Virus record (IMG/VR): IMGVR_UViG_2713896784_000029
Reading direction: 5' to 3' (one strand)
Source of the DNA: a virus
Lineage: Duplodnaviria > Heunggongvirae > Uroviricota > Caudoviricetes
DNA: 38,978 bases
The notes under the pieces are model-generated. The model searched no databases. It saw only the letters and a program-made list of their open reading frames with translations, and was not told the origin of the DNA. The position numbers were made by a program, and so were the translations under genes. The stretch's first letter is position 1, and every line of letters starts with the position of its first letter. Positions 14,746 through 38,606 of the stretch are shown here, piece by piece.

Positions 14746-16334
14746 TGGGACGCATAATTGATCTTGACGGAAAACCTTTCTCCTTTGATCCGGAGATGCA
14801 GAGTGCCGTGCTGGATATTCCGCAGATTGCCAGCCGTTATATTGAACATCCGGCCTCGGGTATCACCCCGAACCGGGCGGCGCAGTGCCTTCGCGGGGCT
14901 GAACGTGGCGATCTGATTGCCCAGTCCGATCTGGCTGCTGACATTGAAGAAAAGGATACCCATCTTTTTGCAGAGCTGGGCAAGCGACGCCTTGCCATTC
15001 AGGGGGTGCCCTGGAGTATTGAGCCGCCACCGAACGCCAGCGCGAATGAGAAAAAGGACGCGGAAATGCTCGACGAATATCTGCATTCCGCCGACTGGTT
15101 TGATGCCATGCTGTTTGATGCCACCGATGCCATCCTGAAAGGCTATTCCTGCATGGAGATTGAGCACGGGATGCTCGGTAAAATGCACATCATCCGCGCC
15201 ATCCGCTGGCGTGACAGCGGGCATTTCTGCCTTAACCCGGATGATTTGAGCGAACTGCGGCTGCGTGACGGCAGCCATGCCGGGGTGGCGTTTCAGCCCT
15301 TTGGCTGGATAGTGCATCAGTCACGTTCACGCACCGGTTACGGCGGCGCAACGGGGCTTGTCAGAACGCTTATCTGGCCGTTCATTTTCAAAAACTATTC
15401 CGTGCGCGATCTGGCTGAATTTCTGGAAGTATACGGCCTGCCGATGAAGGTCGGGAAATACCCGTCCGGGGCAACACCGGAGCAGAAAAGCGCCCTGATG
15501 CGGGCGGTGATGGATATCGGGCGACGTACAGGCGGGATCATCCCGGCCGGGATGTCGCTGGAGTTTCAGGCAGCCGCGAACGGTCAGGCCGATCCGTTTG
15601 AAACCATGATTTCGTGGGGGGAGCGTTCCATCTCCAAAGCAATACTCGGCGGCACGCTGACCACGGAAGCCGGAGACAAGGGCGCGCGCTCGCTGGGTGA
15701 AGTGCATAACGAGGTGCGCCGGGAAATCAGGGATTCTGATTTACGTCAGCTGGCCGCCACGCTGAACCGCGATCTGGTGTATCCGCTGTATGCCCTGAAC
15801 ACCGCCCACGCCATTGATATCCGTCGCCTGCCGCGTATCTGTTTCCAGACAAAAGAGCCGGGGGATATCACCAAAATCACCAGTGCGGTGATGCAGCTCA
15901 GTACGGGGATGGATATTCCTGATCCCTGGGTACGGGAGCAGACCGGTATTCCACAGCCTGCCCCCGGTGAAGCCATCTTCCGTGTCCGTCAGAGTGGCAA
16001 TGAACCTGCTCAGACAGACAAAGAGATGCCACCGGAAAAACAGGAGAAGACAGAGCAGACAGCGCTGGCTGCCAGACTGCCGGAAGCGAAGAGCAGCCCC
16101 CGAGATGAACTGGACGACATGGGGGATGCGGTGCCTGCCCGCCGGTTACAGGAGGCCATCGACCCGGTACTGGAGCCGGTCATTGAAGCCATCAGAACGC
16201 GGGGGCTGGCGGAGGCACTGGCAGACCTGCCTGCCCTTTACCGTGAAATGGATGATTCCCGCCTGATGACGCTGCTCAGTGATGCCATGTTTGCTGCGGA
16301 AATGAAGGGGATGCTGGATGACACAGGGGATTGA
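14736..16334 (+). CDS. portal protein (Mu gp29-like)
   Basis: 532 aa following terminase with overlapping start; size and position typical of Mu-like portal; acidic C-terminus. Confidence 0.75.
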   Translation: MLVVGRIIDLDGKPFSFDPEMQSAVLDIPQIASRYIEHPASGITPNRAAQCLRGAERGDLIAQSDLAADIEEKDTHLFAELGKRRLAIQGVPWSIEPPPNASANEKKDAEMLDEYLHSADWFDAMLFDATDAILKGYSCMEIEHGMLGKMHIIRAIRWRDSGHFCLNPDDLSELRLRDGSHAGVAFQPFGWIVHQSRSRTGYGGATGLVRTLIWPFIFKNYSVRDLAEFLEVYGLPMKVGKYPSGATPEQKSALMRAVMDIGRRTGGIIPAGMSLEFQAAANGQADPFETMISWGERSISKAILGGTLTTEAGDKGARSLGEVHNEVRREIRDSDLRQLAATLNRDLVYPLYALNTAHAIDIRRLPRICFQTKEPGDITKITSAVMQLSTGMDIPDPWVREQTGIPQPAPGEAIFRVRQSGNEPAQTDKEMPPEKQEKTEQTALAARLPEAKSSPRDELDDMGDAVPARRLQEAIDPVLEPVIEAIRTRGLAEALADLPALYREMDDSRLMTLLSDAMFAAEMKGMLDDTGD

Positions 16335-17649
16335 TCTGGGTTATGCCGCCACGCTTCCCTCAAAAGAGGCGGTGGCATACTTCCGTGCCAAAGGGGCGCA
16401 TATCAGCTGGAACTGGTTCGAAACAGCCGCGGATGTTCATGCCCGCTCATTCACGGCAGCAAAAGCGGCACGCCTGGATGTGGTGACCACGTTACAGGCC
16501 GAAGTGCAGCGGGCCATTGATGAAGGTATTTCACAGAAAGAATTTATCCGTACGCTGACGCCCCGCCTGCAAAAGCTGGGATGGTGGGGAAAGCAGGTGG
16601 TGGTGGACAGTGCAGGGAACGCGGAAGAAGTGCAACTGGGCAGTCCCCGTCGTCTGGCGCTGATTTACAACGTGAACACCCGTGTGGCTTACAATGCCGG
16701 GCGTTACACGCAGATGATGAACAACACGGACACGCATCCGTTCTGGCAGTATGTGGCCGTCATAGACAGCAGAACGAGGCCAGAACACGCAAAACTGCAT
16801 CTGCTGGTTTTTCGTTTTGATGATGTATTCTGGCAAACGCATTATCCCCCTAATGACTGGGAATGCCGGTGCCGTGTTCGGGCTTTATCTGCCGCCCGCA
16901 TGAAAGCCATGGGACTGACAGTCAGCTATGGCGCATCGTATATGCACACCCATGAAGTGGATGCCGGTACAGATAAGGCCTCAGGAGAATTGTTTCGCAC
17001 CACTTCCACTACGTTTGATAATGGACGAGTGAAAATGACGCCGGGTGTGGGCTGGTCATATAACCCCGGCTCGGCGGCGTTCGGCACAGACCAGGCGCTG
17101 ATCCGCAAGCTGATCGAAGTGAAAAGCCCGGCGTTACGGGAAATGGTGGTTCAGGAGATGAACAACAGCCCGGAGCGGCAACTGGCGTTCCGCATCTGGG
17201 CAAAAAACATCATGAAAACCCGGCGAGGCGGTAACGATATCCGCACGCTGGGCTTTATGACCGAAAGCATTGCGCAGGCGGTGGAAAGCCGGACGGGAAC
17301 GCCACCGGCCCGCCTGCTGGCGATGAGCGGTAAAAATGTGCTCCATGCGGACAGCATGAAACATCAGAATGACGGTATCGCCCTGACGCCGGAGGATTTC
17401 GGTCGATTACCGGCAATGCTGGCAAAGCCAAAAGCGGTGCTGTGGGACAAACGCCACAACAATCTGATGTATATCGTGGAAAGTAAGGATAGCAGTGTGC
17501 AGATTGCCGTTAATGCGCCGTACAGCCTGAAGCGTCAGCCGGATAAACTGGATGTGATTGTTAATGCTTACCGGGTTATCAATATGGGCAAGCTGAAATC
17601 GGATATCCGGGGCGGAATGCTTGAGGTGCTGGAAGGAGGTATTGATTAA
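16318..17649 (+). CDS. head morphogenesis protein (Mu F-like)
   Basis: 443 aa after portal; HYPPNDWECRCRVRA motif typical of Mu F/SPP1 gp7-family minor head proteins. Confidence 0.75.
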   Translation: MTQGIDLGYAATLPSKEAVAYFRAKGAHISWNWFETAADVHARSFTAAKAARLDVVTTLQAEVQRAIDEGISQKEFIRTLTPRLQKLGWWGKQVVVDSAGNAEEVQLGSPRRLALIYNVNTRVAYNAGRYTQMMNNTDTHPFWQYVAVIDSRTRPEHAKLHLLVFRFDDVFWQTHYPPNDWECRCRVRALSAARMKAMGLTVSYGASYMHTHEVDAGTDKASGELFRTTSTTFDNGRVKMTPGVGWSYNPGSAAFGTDQALIRKLIEVKSPALREMVVQEMNNSPERQLAFRIWAKNIMKTRRGGNDIRTLGFMTESIAQAVESRTGTPPARLLAMSGKNVLHADSMKHQNDGIALTPEDFGRLPAMLAKPKAVLWDKRHNNLMYIVESKDSSVQIAVNAPYSLKRQPDKLDVIVNAYRVINMGKLKSDIRGGMLEVLEGGID

Positions 17650-17770
17650 CGGTCAGTGGCGGGGGTCGAACCCGCATACATGATCCACCCGGAGGCAGGC
17701 ACCGACTTTACCAGTTAAGCGTACACTGACCGCCTGTTTATTTTATATTCATCCTTTATGCGGAGGCAAT

Positions 17771-18244
17771 ATGTCATCCATTGATGCGGCTGTGGTGGTG
17801 GACGTTACGCGTCTCCAGCGGGTCTTTGCCCGGCTTCAGTTTGTGGGAGGCGGGAAAGGCCTGGCCCGCAGTGTGGCGTCCAGCCTTCTGTCATCGTCAG
17901 AAATGGCGTTTGAACAGGAAAAAGAGCCGGACGGCGAACGCTGGCATGACTGGTCAGATCCTTACCGCAAGTGGCGTACCCGTAAGGGATACATGCCCGG
18001 CAAAATCCTGACGCTGAACGGCGATCTGGCCCGACGCCTGACCACGGATTATGGCGACACCTGGGCGCTGATTGGATCAAATGAGCCTTATGCGGCCATT
18101 CATCAGTGGGGTGGCCTGCCCGGTATGCCGCCGGGACCGGCGGCCATTGGTGCACGTCCGTATATGGGCTTTGATCAGGTGGCAGAGCAGGAGATCATGG
18201 ACGAAATCAGAAAACGCTTTAAAAAGGCCACAGAAACGCCTTAA
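17771..18244 (+). CDS. virion morphogenesis protein (Mu G-like)
   Basis: 157 aa between F and I, GGAGG RBS. Confidence 0.6.
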   Translation: MSSIDAAVVVDVTRLQRVFARLQFVGGGKGLARSVASSLLSSSEMAFEQEKEPDGERWHDWSDPYRKWRTRKGYMPGKILTLNGDLARRLTTDYGDTWALIGSNEPYAAIHQWGGLPGMPPGPAAIGARPYMGFDQVAEQEIMDEIRKRFKKATETP

Positions 18245-18420
18245 TTGTTTAAGGTATGCAAATGCATTACCTTACCCCCTTCAGGCGCGTGTCGTGATTT
18301 TCTAACCTGAATTTAACGGGCTTTAAAATCTGCGTGAAGCGCCTTTGTATTTTTCCCCTGAAAGCACTTCCTGAAATCCCGCAAAACCCGCCCTGAAAAT
18401 TCCCGGCTTATGCTGCCGGA

Positions 18421-31264: not shown

Positions 31265-31815
31265 CCCTGACCCCGCATCAGCGCGCCCTGTTGCAGTTGC
31301 TGCCTGACGGGCTGGCATGGGATAAGCGGCCGTCATCCGTTCTTGCGGCTTTGTGCCTGGGCCTCAGTCATTCCACGGAGCGTGTTTCCTGGACCGGTAA
31401 CCAGATGCTGGCAGAACGTTTTCCTGATTCATCCCGTCTGCTGCTGGAAGACTGGGAGCGTTATCTGGGGTTACCGGAATGTGATATGACCGGCGCAACC
31501 ATTCAGGAGCGTCAGCGTTATGCCGGGAATAAATACCGGATGAAACCCTCTCTTAACCGTGAATTTTATATCCGGTTTGCGGCAGAGTTTGGTTATGAAA
31601 TAGATATTCAGCCATCACCGGATTCACAGTGGGTCAGTATTGTCACGATTAACAGTGAAACCGGCTACCGGAATATGAATGTGCTGGATGATATTCTCAC
31701 GCCGCTGCGTATTTATGAAGGCGGTGCGCTGGAATGTATTCTGAACCGTTATAAGCCTGCATGGCAGACGTTTATTTACGTATATGCAAACAGTCACGAA
31801 GAGGAGAATATTTAA
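31255..31815 (+). CDS. tail protein (Mu gp48 position)
   Basis: 186 aa between baseplate J-like gene and tail fibre gene. Confidence 0.6.
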   Translation: MAVTLTPHQRALLQLLPDGLAWDKRPSSVLAALCLGLSHSTERVSWTGNQMLAERFPDSSRLLLEDWERYLGLPECDMTGATIQERQRYAGNKYRMKPSLNREFYIRFAAEFGYEIDIQPSPDSQWVSIVTINSETGYRNMNVLDDILTPLRIYEGGALECILNRYKPAWQTFIYVYANSHEEENI

Positions 31816-32726
31816 TGTTCCATGTTGATAATAATTCCGGCGTGGCGAATATGCCTGCGCTGGCACCGGCGCAGAGTAATACCACCACCTGGTTTACCGA
31901 AGGTGACGGACAAAAAGGTATCAGCTGGATTGGTCAGGACTGGCTGAATATTCTCCAGGCCGAACTGCTGAATATTCTGGCTGAAGCCAGTATTCAGCCG
32001 GATAAGGCGCAGTTAAACCAGCTTACGCTGTCCATTAAAGCCATTATCGCTGCGAATGCCTTTTCCCGGAAAAACAACCTGAAAGAAATTGCTGATGCCG
32101 GTGCGGAAGCCCAGCGTCTTGCCCGTGGTTATCTTGGTCTTGGGGCGCTTGCCACAAAAAACAGTCTTGGTCCCGGTGACGTTAATGCTCTGGCGAAGGA
32201 TCAGAACCTTGCCGACCTGGAGAATGCGGGAACCGCCCGTAATAATCTGGATGTTTACAGCAAAAGCGAAGGTGATAACCGTTACCTGCGCAGGGAGCAG
32301 AACGGCGCAGACATTCCGGATAAAGGCGCTTTTATCGATAACGTTGGTTTACGGGAAACGGTAAATAAGGCTGCTGATGCCCTGCCATCGGGTGGAACCG
32401 CCGTGGCAGCAAACAGACTCGCCACCCCAAGAAATATTAATGGTGTTCCTTTTGACGGAACGCTGGATATCAACATCACGTCAGGAATGACGCAGTCAAC
32501 CGCAGATGGCCGGTATGTACAGAATGTTCAGCTTGGAGCACAGAGCTATCATTCACCCGGAGGCAATGAAATGTCATGGAATTACAGCGCACCTTCCGGT
32601 TGTATGCTTTCCGGAATTAACGTGCAGGAAACCGGCTCCCGGTCTGCGGACAATATCGGTGGGGTCTATTATCGCCCGGTTCAGATTTATATTAATAATG
32701 CCTGGAGAACGGTAAGTTCAGTGTAA
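31815..32726 (+). CDS. tail fibre protein; constant N-terminal part plus variable C-terminal part inside invertible segment
   Basis: ATG 31815 after GAGGAGAA RBS; from about nt 32346 the 3' portion is repeated in inverted orientation at 33560-33720. Confidence 0.75.
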   Translation: MFHVDNNSGVANMPALAPAQSNTTTWFTEGDGQKGISWIGQDWLNILQAELLNILAEASIQPDKAQLNQLTLSIKAIIAANAFSRKNNLKEIADAGAEAQRLARGYLGLGALATKNSLGPGDVNALAKDQNLADLENAGTARNNLDVYSKSEGDNRYLRREQNGADIPDKGAFIDNVGLRETVNKAADALPSGGTAVAANRLATPRNINGVPFDGTLDINITSGMTQSTADGRYVQNVQLGAQSYHSPGGNEMSWNYSAPSGCMLSGINVQETGSRSADNIGGVYYRPVQIYINNAWRTVSSV

Positions 32727-33787: not shown

Positions 33788-34348
33788 ATGCTGATTGGCT
33801 ATATACGCGTATCAACAAATGACCAGAACACAGGTTTACAAAGAAATGCGCTGGAATGTGCAGGATGTGAGCAGATTTTTGAAGATAAAATGAGTGGTAA
33901 AACGACACAGCGGCCGGGACTGAAGCGGGCACTGAAGAAACTAAAACCCGGTGACACACTGATGGTCTGGAAACTGGACAGGCTGGGGCGCAGTATGCGC
34001 CACCTTGTTGCGCTGACAGATGAATTACAGCAACAGGGGATAAATTTTCGTAGTCTTACTGACAACATTGATACGTCAACCCCCATGGGGCGCTTCTTTT
34101 TTCACATAATGGGTGCGCTGGCAGAAATGGAGCGTGAATTAATTGTCGAACGGACACGGGCTGGTCTTGCAGCTGCCCGTGAAAGGGGACGAACCGGCGG
34201 CAGACCCCGTCGTCTCACGCAGGAACAATACGAGCAGGTCGGGCGTTTACTGGCCGGGGGTGTCAGTCGAAGACAGGTGGCACTTATTTTTGATATCGGC
34301 CTTTCAACCCTTTATCGTTATTATCCTGCGAGCGTTTCGGAAAAATAA
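33788..34348 (+). CDS. gin: serine recombinase, Gin/Hin/Pin/Cin-family DNA invertase
   Basis: 186 aa; MLIGYIRVSTNDQNTGLQRNAL... with catalytic Ser in RVST and C-terminal HTH (QVALIFDIGLSTLYRY); very close to Mu Gin as recalled. Confidence 0.9.
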   Translation: MLIGYIRVSTNDQNTGLQRNALECAGCEQIFEDKMSGKTTQRPGLKRALKKLKPGDTLMVWKLDRLGRSMRHLVALTDELQQQGINFRSLTDNIDTSTPMGRFFFHIMGALAEMERELIVERTRAGLAAARERGRTGGRPRRLTQEQYEQVGRLLAGGVSRRQVALIFDIGLSTLYRYYPASVSEK

Positions 34349-34447: not shown

Positions 34448-36487
34448 ATGACGTCCAAATGGGTTCAACTATCATCAATGCCCGGAAACTTTACTGTTAA
34501 AGTTTCCGGTGGTACAGCGGCATTTCTTGAGGCTCCCTTTCCTCCGGCCGAAACAAAAGGAGGAATGACATTTGCTGACTGTCTCATCAGTTTTAATACA
34601 CGGGATTGCCTGTGGGTAAGGCCAGTATCCGGTGATCCGAGTGTGGAAATTACCGGAGCGGGTATTGGTGCGGTCATTCCGTTAAGTGCTGATGTTGCCG
34701 GTACTGCTGAACCGTCAGACTGGGATAATGCTGAAACACATACCCGTCCGTCAGGAAATGAAACTGCTTCCAGCTCCCCTTCCTGGTATTACGTGGTGGT
34801 TCTTGCTGGTCAGTCAAACGGTATGGCTTACGGTGAAGGTCTGCCACTGCCGGAGACATATGACCGCCCCGAACCGCGTATTATGCAGTTAGCCCGTCGC
34901 AGTACAGTCACGCCGGGAGGTAAAGCCTGTCAGTATAACGACATCATTCTGGCCGACCACTGTCTGCATGATGTGCAGGATATGAGTGGAAAAAATCACC
35001 CGAAAGCGGATGTGGCTAAAGGGCAATATGGCACCGTGGGTCAGGGGCTTCACATTGCCAAAAAACTGCTGCCGTTTATTCCGGCAGATGCGGGGATTCT
35101 GCTGGTTCCCTGCTGCCGTGGTGGTTCTGCATTCACGGCGGGTGCTGACGGCACGTACAGTGACAGCACGGGTGCTTCAGAGGACTCAGCCCGCTGGGGT
35201 GTGGATAAGCCGCTGTATAAGGACTTAATCAGCCGGACAAAAGCGGCACTGGCGAAGAACCCGAAAAACCGCCTGCTTGCTGTGGTGTGGATGCAGGGCG
35301 AGTTTGATATTGATGCGAAGCCGACGGAGCATTCCGCGCTGTTTCTGGCGATGGTGGAAAAATTCCGCGCAGACCTGGCTGAACAGGCGGAACAGTGTAC
35401 CGGTGGCAGTGCTGCTGGCGTTCCGTGGATTTGTGGCGATACCACGTATTTCTGGAAACAGAAAAATGAACCGGCATACCAGGCAATCTATGGCGGCTAC
35501 AAAAACAAAACAGATAAAAACATTCATTTCGTTCCATTAATGACAGATGAAAATGACGCGAATGTACCCACCAACAATCCGGCAGAAGACCCGGATATTG
35601 AATCCATTGGTTATTACGGCTCAACGTGGCGTAACAGTGCCGCCACCTGGACATCTGCGGACCGGGCCAGCCATTTCAGTTCATGGGCACGTCGTGGGAT
35701 TATTTCCGACCGTCTGGCCACGGCAGTTCTGACTCATGCGGGGCGAACCACAGTAAAAGCCGATGTTCCATCTTCTGAAACTGAAGCACCAGTGCCGTCA
35801 CCTTCAGAAACTGAAGCAGTAACCACAACACTGCTGTCTTATCGTGTCAGTGAGTCAGAAGGAAATCTGAAAGCCCAGGGCTGGGAGCCGGCTGGCGGTA
35901 AAGCTGAAATTATCAGTGATGCAGGAGGCACAGGTGGTAAGGCAATGAAACTGACCAAGGAAACAGGTAAATCATCCTGGTATCTGGATCATGATGCCGG
36001 TACTGGTGCTGAACTGCTGAAAAATGGTGGTTTAATCAGTTGTCGTTTTAAAGTACCTGGCGACCTGGTGGCAAACCAGTATGTCATGGGGCTTTACTGG
36101 CCGGTTTCCTCTCTGCCGCAGGGTGTCACCCTGACAGGGGATGCAGGGAATAATCTGCTGGCATCGTTCTACATCCAGACAGACGCAAAAGACCTGAATG
36201 TGATGTACCACAATGCAAAAGTGGCAACAAATAACCAGAAACTGGGAACCTTTGGTGCATTTGATAATGAATGGCATACGCTGGCCTTCCGTTTTGCAGG
36301 AAATAACAGCCTTCAGGTTATTCCGGTTATTGATGGTCAGGATGGTGCCGCGTTTACCCTGACGCAGTCACCAGTAGGAACTTTCCCGGTGGACAAACTC
36401 CGCGTAACGGATATCACAAAAAATGCAACTTACCCGGTGCTGATTGACAGCATTGTGGTGGAAGTGAAAAAAGCGGTAACAGAATAA
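34448..36487 (+). CDS. cargo SASA/SGNH-type carbohydrate O-acetylesterase (prophage NanS-p-like) with C-terminal beta-rich domain
   Basis: 679 aa; VVVLAGQSNGMAYGEG (Ser motif) and VVWMQGEFD (WxQGE.D) match the sialate O-acetylesterase family signature; SETEA-SETEA linker then ~230-aa beta-rich domain; located between gin and com where Mu has no gene. Confidence 0.6.
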   Translation: MTSKWVQLSSMPGNFTVKVSGGTAAFLEAPFPPAETKGGMTFADCLISFNTRDCLWVRPVSGDPSVEITGAGIGAVIPLSADVAGTAEPSDWDNAETHTRPSGNETASSSPSWYYVVVLAGQSNGMAYGEGLPLPETYDRPEPRIMQLARRSTVTPGGKACQYNDIILADHCLHDVQDMSGKNHPKADVAKGQYGTVGQGLHIAKKLLPFIPADAGILLVPCCRGGSAFTAGADGTYSDSTGASEDSARWGVDKPLYKDLISRTKAALAKNPKNRLLAVVWMQGEFDIDAKPTEHSALFLAMVEKFRADLAEQAEQCTGGSAAGVPWICGDTTYFWKQKNEPAYQAIYGGYKNKTDKNIHFVPLMTDENDANVPTNNPAEDPDIESIGYYGSTWRNSAATWTSADRASHFSSWARRGIISDRLATAVLTHAGRTTVKADVPSSETEAPVPSPSETEAVTTTLLSYRVSESEGNLKAQGWEPAGGKAEIISDAGGTGGKAMKLTKETGKSSWYLDHDAGTGAELLKNGGLISCRFKVPGDLVANQYVMGLYWPVSSLPQGVTLTGDAGNNLLASFYIQTDAKDLNVMYHNAKVATNNQKLGTFGAFDNEWHTLAFRFAGNNSLQVIPVIDGQDGAAFTLTQSPVGTFPVDKLRVTDITKNATYPVLIDSIVVEVKKAVTE

Positions 36488-37714: not shown

Positions 37715-37915
37715 ATGTATCGAAACATACGGTGCCGACACTGCAATAAGCTACTGGCACGGGCCAGTTTCAGTTATCTGGAAGTAAAATGTCCGCGCTG
37801 TAAAACCCTCAATCAAATCACATCTCCGAGCGCCACAGAGCACCCCACATACACAAGGAAATCCTGTCGTGGGGAACAGAAAGCAAGTCACATCCCGAAT
37901 CATCAGCACGCCTGA
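37715..37915 (+). CDS. com: Com zinc-finger translational activator of mom
   Basis: [30 protein letters not shown] parallels Mu Com (IRCKNCNKLL...IRCPRCK); ORF overlaps the mom start as in Mu. Confidence 0.8.
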
Positions 37916-38606
37916 ACTTATTCGCTATAACGACAATATCGTTGGTTATGGCTCCCGTGAGTTGCGGGTTGAGACAATAAGTTGCTGGCTGGCCAGACTG
38001 GTCATCGTCAATAAACATTACAGCCACCGTTTCGTAAATAACTCCTACCTTCATCTGGGCATATTTTCAGAACGGGAACTTGTTGGCGTAATGCAATGGG
38101 GTTACGCCCTTAACCCAAACAGTGGTGCACGCGTCGTAACGGGTACGCAGAACCGAGAATATATGGAGCTTAACCGGCTATGGCTGCATGACTGTATGCC
38201 GAGAAACTCCGAATCAAGGGCAATCAGTTACGCGCTCAAGCTAATCAGGCAGCTTTATCCGCAGGTACAGTGGGTTCAGTCGTTTGCAGATGAGCGTTGT
38301 GGCTGTCTTGGTGTCGTGTATCAGGCAAGCAATTTTGATTATGTAGGCAGCCATGAATCAATATTCTATGAACTTGATGGCGAGTGGTATCACGAGATTT
38401 GCAGGAATGCCATTAAACGAGGCGGACAACGAGGTGAACATCTGAGGGCTAATATTGACAGAGCCAGTGTTCATAAGTTCCGACAGTTTCGTTACATCCG
38501 GTTTCTGAACAAGAGGGCCAGAAAACGCCTCAACACAAAGCTATTCAAAGTCCAGCCTTACCCAAAACCACAAACAGTTAAAACTGGTTTGAAAGAGAGT
38601 GAATGA
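37869..38606 (+). CDS. mom: Mom DNA-modification protein
   Basis: 245-aa ORF immediately downstream of and overlapping com, last gene before the right end, as in Mu; exact start uncertain. Confidence 0.7.

Follow-up and report, generated by a model that had tools for sequence, protein, structure and literature searches.

To our knowledge, non-decoding mimics of transfer RNA (tRNA) are rare in bacteria, with transfer-messenger RNA (tmRNA) and YrlA as the chief examples, and each of them has revealed how cells or viruses exploit the machinery that recognises tRNA. The tRNA-like domain of tmRNA mimics an acceptor stem and T arm without an anticodon. YrlA, one of the Y-RNA-like RNAs reportedly found with a tRNA-like module in bacteria and phages, copies the acceptor/T/D body of a tRNA with neither an anticodon nor a free CCA end. 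The tRNA-Other pseudo-tRNA reported from Bacillus cereus and the small stable RNAs of the T4 tRNA cluster are likewise tRNA-shaped and non-decoding, with roles that are regulatory or undefined. Among protein-coding inserts, an anti-CRISPR locus is said to lie between gene G and the protease gene of Pseudomonas Mu-like phages. Here we describe an anticodon-less, tRNA-like RNA gene of 81 nucleotides (nt) in a Mu-like prophage (IMG/VR record IMGVR_UViG_2713896784_000029; the whole 38,978-nt stretch analysed is called the window, and positions refer to it). The gene lies on the minus strand at 17651–17731, in the 121-nt gap between the stop codon of the head gene F (TAA, 17647–17649) and the start of the head gene G (17771). 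It is conserved, structured and tRNA-shaped, and it is accompanied by promoter motifs and, in some lineages, by a terminator.

Read from 17731 to 17651, the RNA begins with G-1 GUCAGUG UA C GCUU AACUGGUA AAG U CG, continues with GUGC CUGCC UCCG GGUGG AUCAUGUAU, and ends with GCGGG UUCGACC CCCGC CACUGAC C73. Its acceptor-like helix of 8 base pairs (bp) joins a 5′ strand at 17724–17731 to a 3′ strand, read directly from the sequence, at 17651–17658. GTCAGTG (17730–17724) pairs with CACTGAC (17658–17652), and the eighth pair is G-1 (17731) with C73 (17651). RNAfold lengthened this helix to 11 bp by adding C:G, G·U and G·U pairs that run into the F stop codon, which lies 1 nt past C73 and takes part in the extension. 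No CCA is encoded, the bases after C73 being GUU. The D arm (17703–17721), delimited by covariation, has a 5-bp stem (C-G, G-C, a bulged U, C-G, U-A and U-A) and the 8-nt loop AACUGGUA (17716–17709) with G18G19; the T arm, GCGGG-UUCGACC-CCCGC (17675–17659), was delimited in the same way. Where a tRNA has its anticodon arm and variable loop, folding placed a 27-nt variable arm (17676–17702) made up of an outer GUG/CAU pairing, the hairpin CUGCC-UCCG-GGUGG (17685–17698) and UGUAU ahead of the T stem. This middle hairpin is a 5-bp stem with the UNCG-type tetraloop UCCG and extra linkers, and there is no anticodon arm. The RNAfold structure as a whole (11-bp terminal helix, D arm, UCCG hairpin and T arm) had an energy of −35.7 kcal/mol and a merely modest z-score of −2.19. 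An initial annotation made from the sequence alone had described a terminal helix, a D-arm-like loop and a near-consensus T arm on this strand and, failing to fold an anticodon stem, had concluded that the element is not a canonical tRNA. Each of these points held up: the helix extends to 8 and 11 bp, the loop and T arm are present, the middle 27 nt close into a hairpin, and structure prediction gives a cloverleaf-like fold beyond a simple hairpin.

Comparison with described RNAs gave partial likenesses only. With the canonical tRNA family (RF00005) the RNA shares the acceptor helix, the D arm with A14, G18G19 and A21, the UUCRA T arm, U8, a pair of the A15–U48 type and the cloverleaf order. 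It differs in lacking the 5-bp anticodon stem with its 7-nt loop, U33 and the anticodon, in having a covarying eighth acceptor pair (−1:73) and an extra C:G pair in the D stem, and in its 3′ end, where C73 is paired with G-1 to leave no single-stranded discriminator and no CCA; CCA is encoded in all Escherichia coli tRNA genes. An 8/5 acceptor/T stack is common to the element and tRNA-Sec, but tRNA-Sec has a 6-bp D stem, a 4-nt loop, a long variable arm and a UCA anticodon, whereas the element has an 8-nt D loop and no anticodon, and Rfam kept tRNA as the best match within the tRNA/tRNA-Sec clan. Unlike tmRNA, the element lacks G3:U70 (3:70 is C:G), an mRNA-like tag frame and pseudoknots, has a full D stem, and is 81 nt rather than about 360 nt long; for one relative the best sub-threshold Rfam match was tmRNA, at 17.6 bits against a cut-off of 47. 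YrlA shares occurrence in phages and a presumed action through engaging tRNA-recognising proteins, but its topology is the opposite: its ends form a Ro60-binding helix in the place of the anticodon stem and its acceptor-like stem is capped by a loop, whereas the ends of the element's RNA lie in the acceptor helix. No Rfam match to a Y-RNA family was found, and neither rsr nor rtcB is a neighbour. The viral 3′ structure Tymo_tRNA-like, with its pseudoknotted acceptor, scored 11 bits against a cut-off of 40. The tRNA-Other pseudo-tRNA differs in keeping its anticodon arm and in being a chromosomal gene rather than a phage cassette of fixed position. Like the accessory "moron" genes in the head modules of Mu-like phages, the element is a short stretch inserted between conserved genes, preceded by a promoter motif, patchy in presence and exchanged as a module; unlike them, its product is an RNA and it is antisense to the operon. 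The element thus resembles the non-decoding tRNA mimics (the tmRNA domain, YrlA, pseudo-tRNAs) yet belongs to none of them.

Annotation pipelines either overlook the element or label it "tRNA-OTHER". ARAGORN called no tRNA and no tmRNA in the window and no family member in many loci, and Rfam with default filters reported nothing over the whole window. A sensitive Rfam search of 17550–17850 (301 nt) matched RF00005 at 17651–17730 with 31.0 bits (gathering score 29, E = 8e-5), the alignment covering the acceptor, D and T arms and skipping a 24-nt middle region. The covariance-model search that had been suggested with the initial annotation thus returned a match, for an element that default filtering of the 39-kb window overlooks although it exceeds the tRNA gathering score in the 301-nt search. 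A sensitive search of 37.5 kb did not recognise six phage-borne family members as tRNA (L123, L118, L106, L126, L116 and L119) but did recognise the satellite copies of locus L002, at 35.0 and 33.9 bits. Of 5426 complete E. coli genomes, 173 contain an identical stretch of 131 bp, and in many of these RefSeq labels the 80-nt core "tRNA-OTHER". Prophages of this type are found, for instance, in E. coli 89-3156 (NZ_CP027366) and, as Sp18, in O157:H7 Sakai. In O157:H7 strains (L126) a T-loop variant, UUCAACC, with position 57 still a purine, is unannotated in RefSeq. Five further loci (L047, L053, L056, L057 and L080) have the T loop UUCGCCC; this A58-to-C change would break the U54–A58 pair, and the RNA may be inactive there. 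A full-text literature search found no published description, and a paper that names Sp18 proved unrelated; the element is a known annotation and not a described element.

We gathered relatives by pattern scans of viral contigs, by a scan of viral contigs for F homologues, and with our own covariance model R1, built from 21 sequences; together these yielded about 62 distinct sequences, and the final alignment holds 62. Alignment A2 was preferred to a trimmed MAFFT alignment (A3) in which the acceptor stem was out of register. Two pattern scans of a species-representative genome collection gave no useful result, and the host range reported here comes from E. coli records, IMG/VR prophages and Pasteurella phage Pmp9. 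Matches in L034, L011 and L005, like most metagenome matches, were ordinary tRNAs or the tRNA arrays of large phages and were rejected as family members. On the window, R1 scored 92.2 bits at 17647–17735, the sole copy.

Covariation across the 62 homologues is the decisive evidence that the element exceeds chance. Standard pairs fill 96.6% of alignment cells, against 74.6% after shuffling and 35–57% in slid registers, and 13 of 18 pairs, spread over all three helices, show compensatory changes on both sides. In the acceptor-like helix 7/8 pairs do so, including −1:73 (GC in 21 sequences, AU in 15, UA in 10, GU/UG in 3). Four of the five D-stem pairs covary, the extra C:G pair is invariant, and a 1-nt bulge is often present; the 5-bp T stem is paired in 99.4% of cases, with two pairs covarying. 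Among single nucleotides, G7, U8, the extra C, A14, A15, G18, G19, U20, A21, G53, U54, U55, C56, C61 and C62 are invariant (62/62), position 57 is always a purine (62/62), and U48 (61/62), A9 (61/62) and A58 (60/62) are nearly so; these are the nucleotides that build the core and elbow of a tRNA. Conservation of the elbow and helices holds among phages whose F proteins are merely 38–45% identical. The middle arm behaves differently: it is 10–44 nt long and unrelated in sequence between types, but always a closed hairpin, often capped by a very stable UUCG, UCCG or GCAA tetraloop, and none of the roughly 60 variants has a 7-nt anticodon loop. The hairpin is conserved within a type along with the whole RNA, and is replaced between types.

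The pairing statistics also identify the strand under selection. G·U pairs outnumber A·C mismatches 22:1 and 32:2 in the helices, and an A·C on this strand would read as G·U on the plus strand, so selection acts on RNA read from the minus strand, which is antisense to F and G, and a plus-strand mRNA structure or terminator is not what is conserved. A promoter scan found a sigma-70-like promoter, TTGCCT-18-TAAAAT, at 17769–17740 on the minus strand with 9/12 matches: the −10 box TAAAAT lies at 17740–17745, and the −35 box TTGCCT at 17764–17769 is the complement of the G ribosome-binding region GGAGGCAA. The −10 box ends 8 nt ahead of G-1, which puts the predicted start at about −4 to −2 (about 17732–17734), at the foot of the helix. 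An equivalent promoter motif, defined by at least 8/12 matches and a −10 box ending 4–12 nt before the helix, occurs in 47 of 52 unique upstream regions compared with 2% of random positions. Its position is kept while the hexamers differ by lineage (TAAAAT, TATACT, TATAAT, TGnTATGCT). In 13 of 57 unique downstream contexts a predicted rho-independent terminator of textbook form, for example AAGCCCCG-TTATT-CGGGGCTT-TGTTGTT, follows on the element's strand 0–3 nt past the helix.

Position is as constant as structure. All phage copies occupy the interval from the F stop to the G start and are encoded on the opposite strand, in phages whose F is from 98% down to 38% identical to that of the window. 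Among 80 viral loci bearing F, 53 gave a single match, always just past the F stop and on the opposite strand; further loci and Pasteurella phage Pmp9, a named example, show the same arrangement. The other 27 gave no match; 3 of these are either truncated or without a match for G. In most of the remainder F and G overlap (…GTGAATAAGTGAGT…) or are separated by a ribosome-binding site only: L082–L098, L094, L100 and phage Mu (L125) have an F stop that overlaps or adjoins the start of G, and in L094 the TAA is followed directly by GGAGGCAATATG, the same ribosome-binding site as in the window. Mu, where F and G overlap, has no element, and neither do D108 and SfMu, which belong to the same F group as Mu. 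By this comparison of loci, the unit absent from Mu-type relatives is a cassette of about 112 bp (17650–17761) comprising the RNA gene and the −10 region, and since Mu, D108 and SfMu manage without it, it is an accessory, moron-like cassette that a Mu-like phage can dispense with.

The surroundings of the cassette are mosaic, with break-points near it. Between the window and L044/L060, G is 95–96% identical and upstream F about 90%, but identity falls to 65–77% over the final 300 nt of F and through the RNA and spacer, and the RNA type differs. Between the window and L061, in contrast, the RNA is 96% identical where the flanks are about 70%, which indicates selection on the RNA. The first 330 residues of F are about 70% identical in element-bearing and element-less groups alike, whereas the last 100 are 54–71% identical among element-bearing phages and 24–40% in the element-less, and the last ~25 residues track the RNA type.

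Copies also occur in satellite-like elements. Locus L122 (16565–24820; E. coli STEC17-183, NZ_CP075652) is an 8.2-kb integrative element in mdtP that encodes an integrase, ash, an Icd-like protein, a RepA helicase, SSB, PerC and Mor, and ends with three tandem tRNA-like genes; its relatives in gut metagenomes have two or three copies. The array has a single promoter-like site (TTTACC-17-TACTAT) and U-rich spacers of 24 nt as in a tRNA operon, and short U-rich spacers behind one promoter suggest endonucleolytic processing. Each array copy resembles a different phage type, and all share one acceptor sequence. Upstream of the array promoter are GTGAAA repeats and the palindrome CTGGTGCTACCAG. A second type of element combines Mor, a Mu gpT-like capsid gene and one tRNA-like copy (L040, 2289–3765; L038, 424–1054; L033). 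The DNA just downstream of that copy is variable, with a DUF2971 gene in L040 that is replaced in L038.

With moderate confidence, we propose that the cassette encodes a tRNA-body mimic that does not decode and that acts in trans on a tRNA-binding partner. The acceptor/T/D body and elbow of a tRNA are read by RNase P, the CCA-adding enzyme, several modification enzymes and many tRNA-directed toxins, and selection on the element keeps just this body, which favours a trans-acting mimic. Among the readings offered in the initial annotation (tRNA remnant, tRNA mimic and structured processing site), only the mimic agrees with the covarying helices and the invariant or near-invariant tertiary nucleotides. 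In the proposed mechanism, the sigma-70 promoter (−10 at 17745–17740, −35 over the G ribosome-binding site) would start the RNA 2–4 nt before the helix; it looks constitutive and could fire in the lysogen too. The product of about 81–90 nt would fold as a tRNA-like L, with a closed acceptor-like helix, D stem, canonical D-loop/T-loop elbow and T stem, and with a stable, type-specific hairpin in the place of the anticodon arm. Having no anticodon loop, the RNA cannot decode, and the absence of CCA, the closed and extended terminal helix and the variable −1:73 pair make a shared aminoacylation identity unlikely. A protein that recognises the tRNA acceptor/T/D core might then bind the RNA and possibly process or modify it, and the RNA could act as decoy, inhibitor or ligand of that protein. 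Candidate partners would be a tRNA-directed toxin, a defence nuclease, or a tRNA-processing or tRNA-modifying enzyme.

Several observations weigh against a trans-acting mimic. A decoy would face competition from the very large cellular tRNA pool, the window encodes no tRNA-related enzyme, and its lineage has no terminator after the helix; promoter, RNA ends and RNA stability are predictions. A role in cis on the F-G mRNA would account just as well for the fixed position and antisense orientation. The hairpin, moreover, is kept within types and swapped between them, and arrays hold one copy of each of three types, which hints at a specificity determinant that a generic tRNA-body decoy does not explain. 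In a bolder version, which we hold only tentatively and think unlikely, the family would be a previously undescribed class of phage and satellite anticodon-less tRNA mimics serving as RNA-only weapons. The target of the tRNA body would be an immune nuclease or toxin directed at tRNA, or a factor of a helper or competitor, and the middle hairpin would set specificity.

The alternative that survives best, though we think it improbable, is that the RNA or its convergent transcription acts in cis on the late F-G mRNA. One route would be a duplex that RNase III cleaves at the F-G junction; another would be transcriptional interference where G has its ribosome-binding site and start. Stability would then be all that the tRNA shape contributes, and the satellite-like copies would target the late mRNA of a helper phage. 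The position and antisense orientation kept in every phage copy fit such a regulator. So do the overlap of the −35 box with the ribosome-binding site of G, the fact that the late mRNA must include a sequence perfectly complementary to the RNA, and the resemblance of the three array copies to three different phage types. However, antisense action has no need of the invariant nucleotides in the D and T loops, the UUCG and UCCG caps make poor kissing loops and, like GCAA, poor antisense seeds, copies occur outside the F/G context (L122, L040), and variants with a terminator straight behind the helix do not reach into F. A fixed position is also what simple vertical inheritance would produce within a conserved head module.

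Short complementarities to the RNA do occur in the window. GGAGGCA is found twice on the plus strand, at the G ribosome-binding site (17762–17769) and inside the element (17692–17698), and the UGCCUCC of the RNA loop region is complementary to the former; the L003 type has no such match. At 32554–32565, inside a tail-fibre open reading frame (31761–32726), CACCCGGAGGCA is a perfect 12-nt complement of the RNA hairpin, where 0.08 such matches are expected. As a target in trans for the middle hairpin, these 12-nt and 7-nt matches were judged to be chance, UNCG hairpins being poor seeds and the L003 type lacking the ribosome-binding-site match.

It is quite improbable that the RNA is chargeable, that is, trimmed, given CCA, aminoacylated and used off the ribosome. 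The intact acceptor/T-arm stack would allow it, and both the window and 21 of 62 relatives have G-1:C73, the major identity element recognised by HisRS of E. coli. Against this, an encoded CCA is missing from the window copy and from every other copy with a 3′ end that was read, the terminal helix is often longer than 8 bp (11 bp in the window, about 14 bp in L033), and no transferase is associated. The −1:73 pair varies freely (AU 15, UA 10), so that there is no common identity element, and its free covariation rules out a family-wide histidine identity.

A role as RNA cofactor of head morphogenesis or packaging, in which the RNA would contact F or its C-terminal domain in loose analogy to the packaging RNA of phi29, seems very improbable. 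In its favour, the gene sits inside the portal-F-G-protease-capsid module, the final ~25 residues of F change along with the RNA type, the C-terminal 100 residues are more alike in phages with the element than without (54–71% against 24–40%), and an element that encodes its own gpT capsid protein also has a copy. Yet Mu, D108 and SfMu build heads without the element, and the satellite-like element of L122 has it without head genes; L061 has the RNA type of the window while its F C-terminus is only 69% identical, and physical linkage alone would yield co-variation.

Three further possibilities have next to no standing. Decay of a former phage tRNA gene into a pseudogene, the "remnant" of the initial annotation, would account for the missing anticodon loop, the blank ARAGORN result and an Rfam score just above the cut-off, but it is scarcely credible for an element with compensatory changes in all three helices, (near-)invariant elbow nucleotides, 96% identity where the flanks have about 70%, a conserved promoter and, in some lineages, a terminator; covariation and elbow conservation exclude decay.

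Almost no weight can be given to an intrinsic terminator or mRNA-processing structure on the plus strand between F and G. The initial annotation had suggested a plus-strand terminator, and the outer helix followed by CCUGUUUAUUUUAU is indeed present on that strand; the terminator role found no support, and the structured processing site that the annotation also listed fares no better. Read as plus-strand RNA, the G·U pairs become A·C mismatches (32 against 2), the fold is no better than that of shuffled sequence (z = −1.23), and a terminator scan of the gap was blank. The U-rich tail is the complement of the element's own −10 box and is missing in relatives whose −10 box is TATACT, and G, downstream in the same operon, requires read-through.

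Equally unlikely is a DNA-level site at which other mobile elements attach or recombine: tRNA genes are a common choice of integrases, a copy adjoins the variable cargo slot in L040 compared with L038, and mosaic break-points lie near the cassette, but covariation in keeping with G·U pairing indicates that selection acts on the RNA, the covariance model found no partial duplications of the element, and we saw no elements integrated into the tRNA-like gene with a duplicated 3′ half. For the L122 satellite-like element an attachment-site role was rejected, its 24-nt attachment repeats (AAAAAGGCATACAAAAAGGCATAC) lying elsewhere and bearing no relation to the array of tRNA-like genes.

The window is a complete Mu-like prophage with a repressor-like open reading frame on the minus strand at its left end; the plus strand carries transposase A and B, Gam, terminase, portal, F, G, protease I, capsid T, tail genes, Gin and Mom. 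The tRNA-like gene is thus antisense to the late head operon and co-oriented with the repressor gene. F (16318–17649, plus strand) is a MuF minor head protein (Pfam PF04233 Phage_Mu_F and PF18819 MuF_C), and G (17771–18244, plus strand) is a virion morphogenesis protein of the G-like family (PF05069 Phage_tail_S). In Mu the gap between G and I is annotated with a strong gyrase cut site, a terminator and the late promoter PI; in the corresponding gap of the window (18245–18420) we found no sigma-70 promoter or terminator motif. Between gin (33788–34348) and mom (37869–38606), a 679-residue protein with a SASA acetylesterase domain and DUF6645 (34448–36487) is probably the product of an accessory or surface-modifying gene.

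The family is small, sharply defined and strongly selected, and it occupies a fixed accessory slot in widespread temperate transposable phages. Its carriers include prophages of Shiga-toxin-producing E. coli, and it forms arrays in satellite-like elements. That the model phages Mu, D108 and SfMu lack the element may explain why it has gone unstudied. If the RNAs do serve as weapons, phages would be swapping types and satellite-like elements stacking two or three of them, in an RNA-level arms race fought at an accessory slot of the head module.

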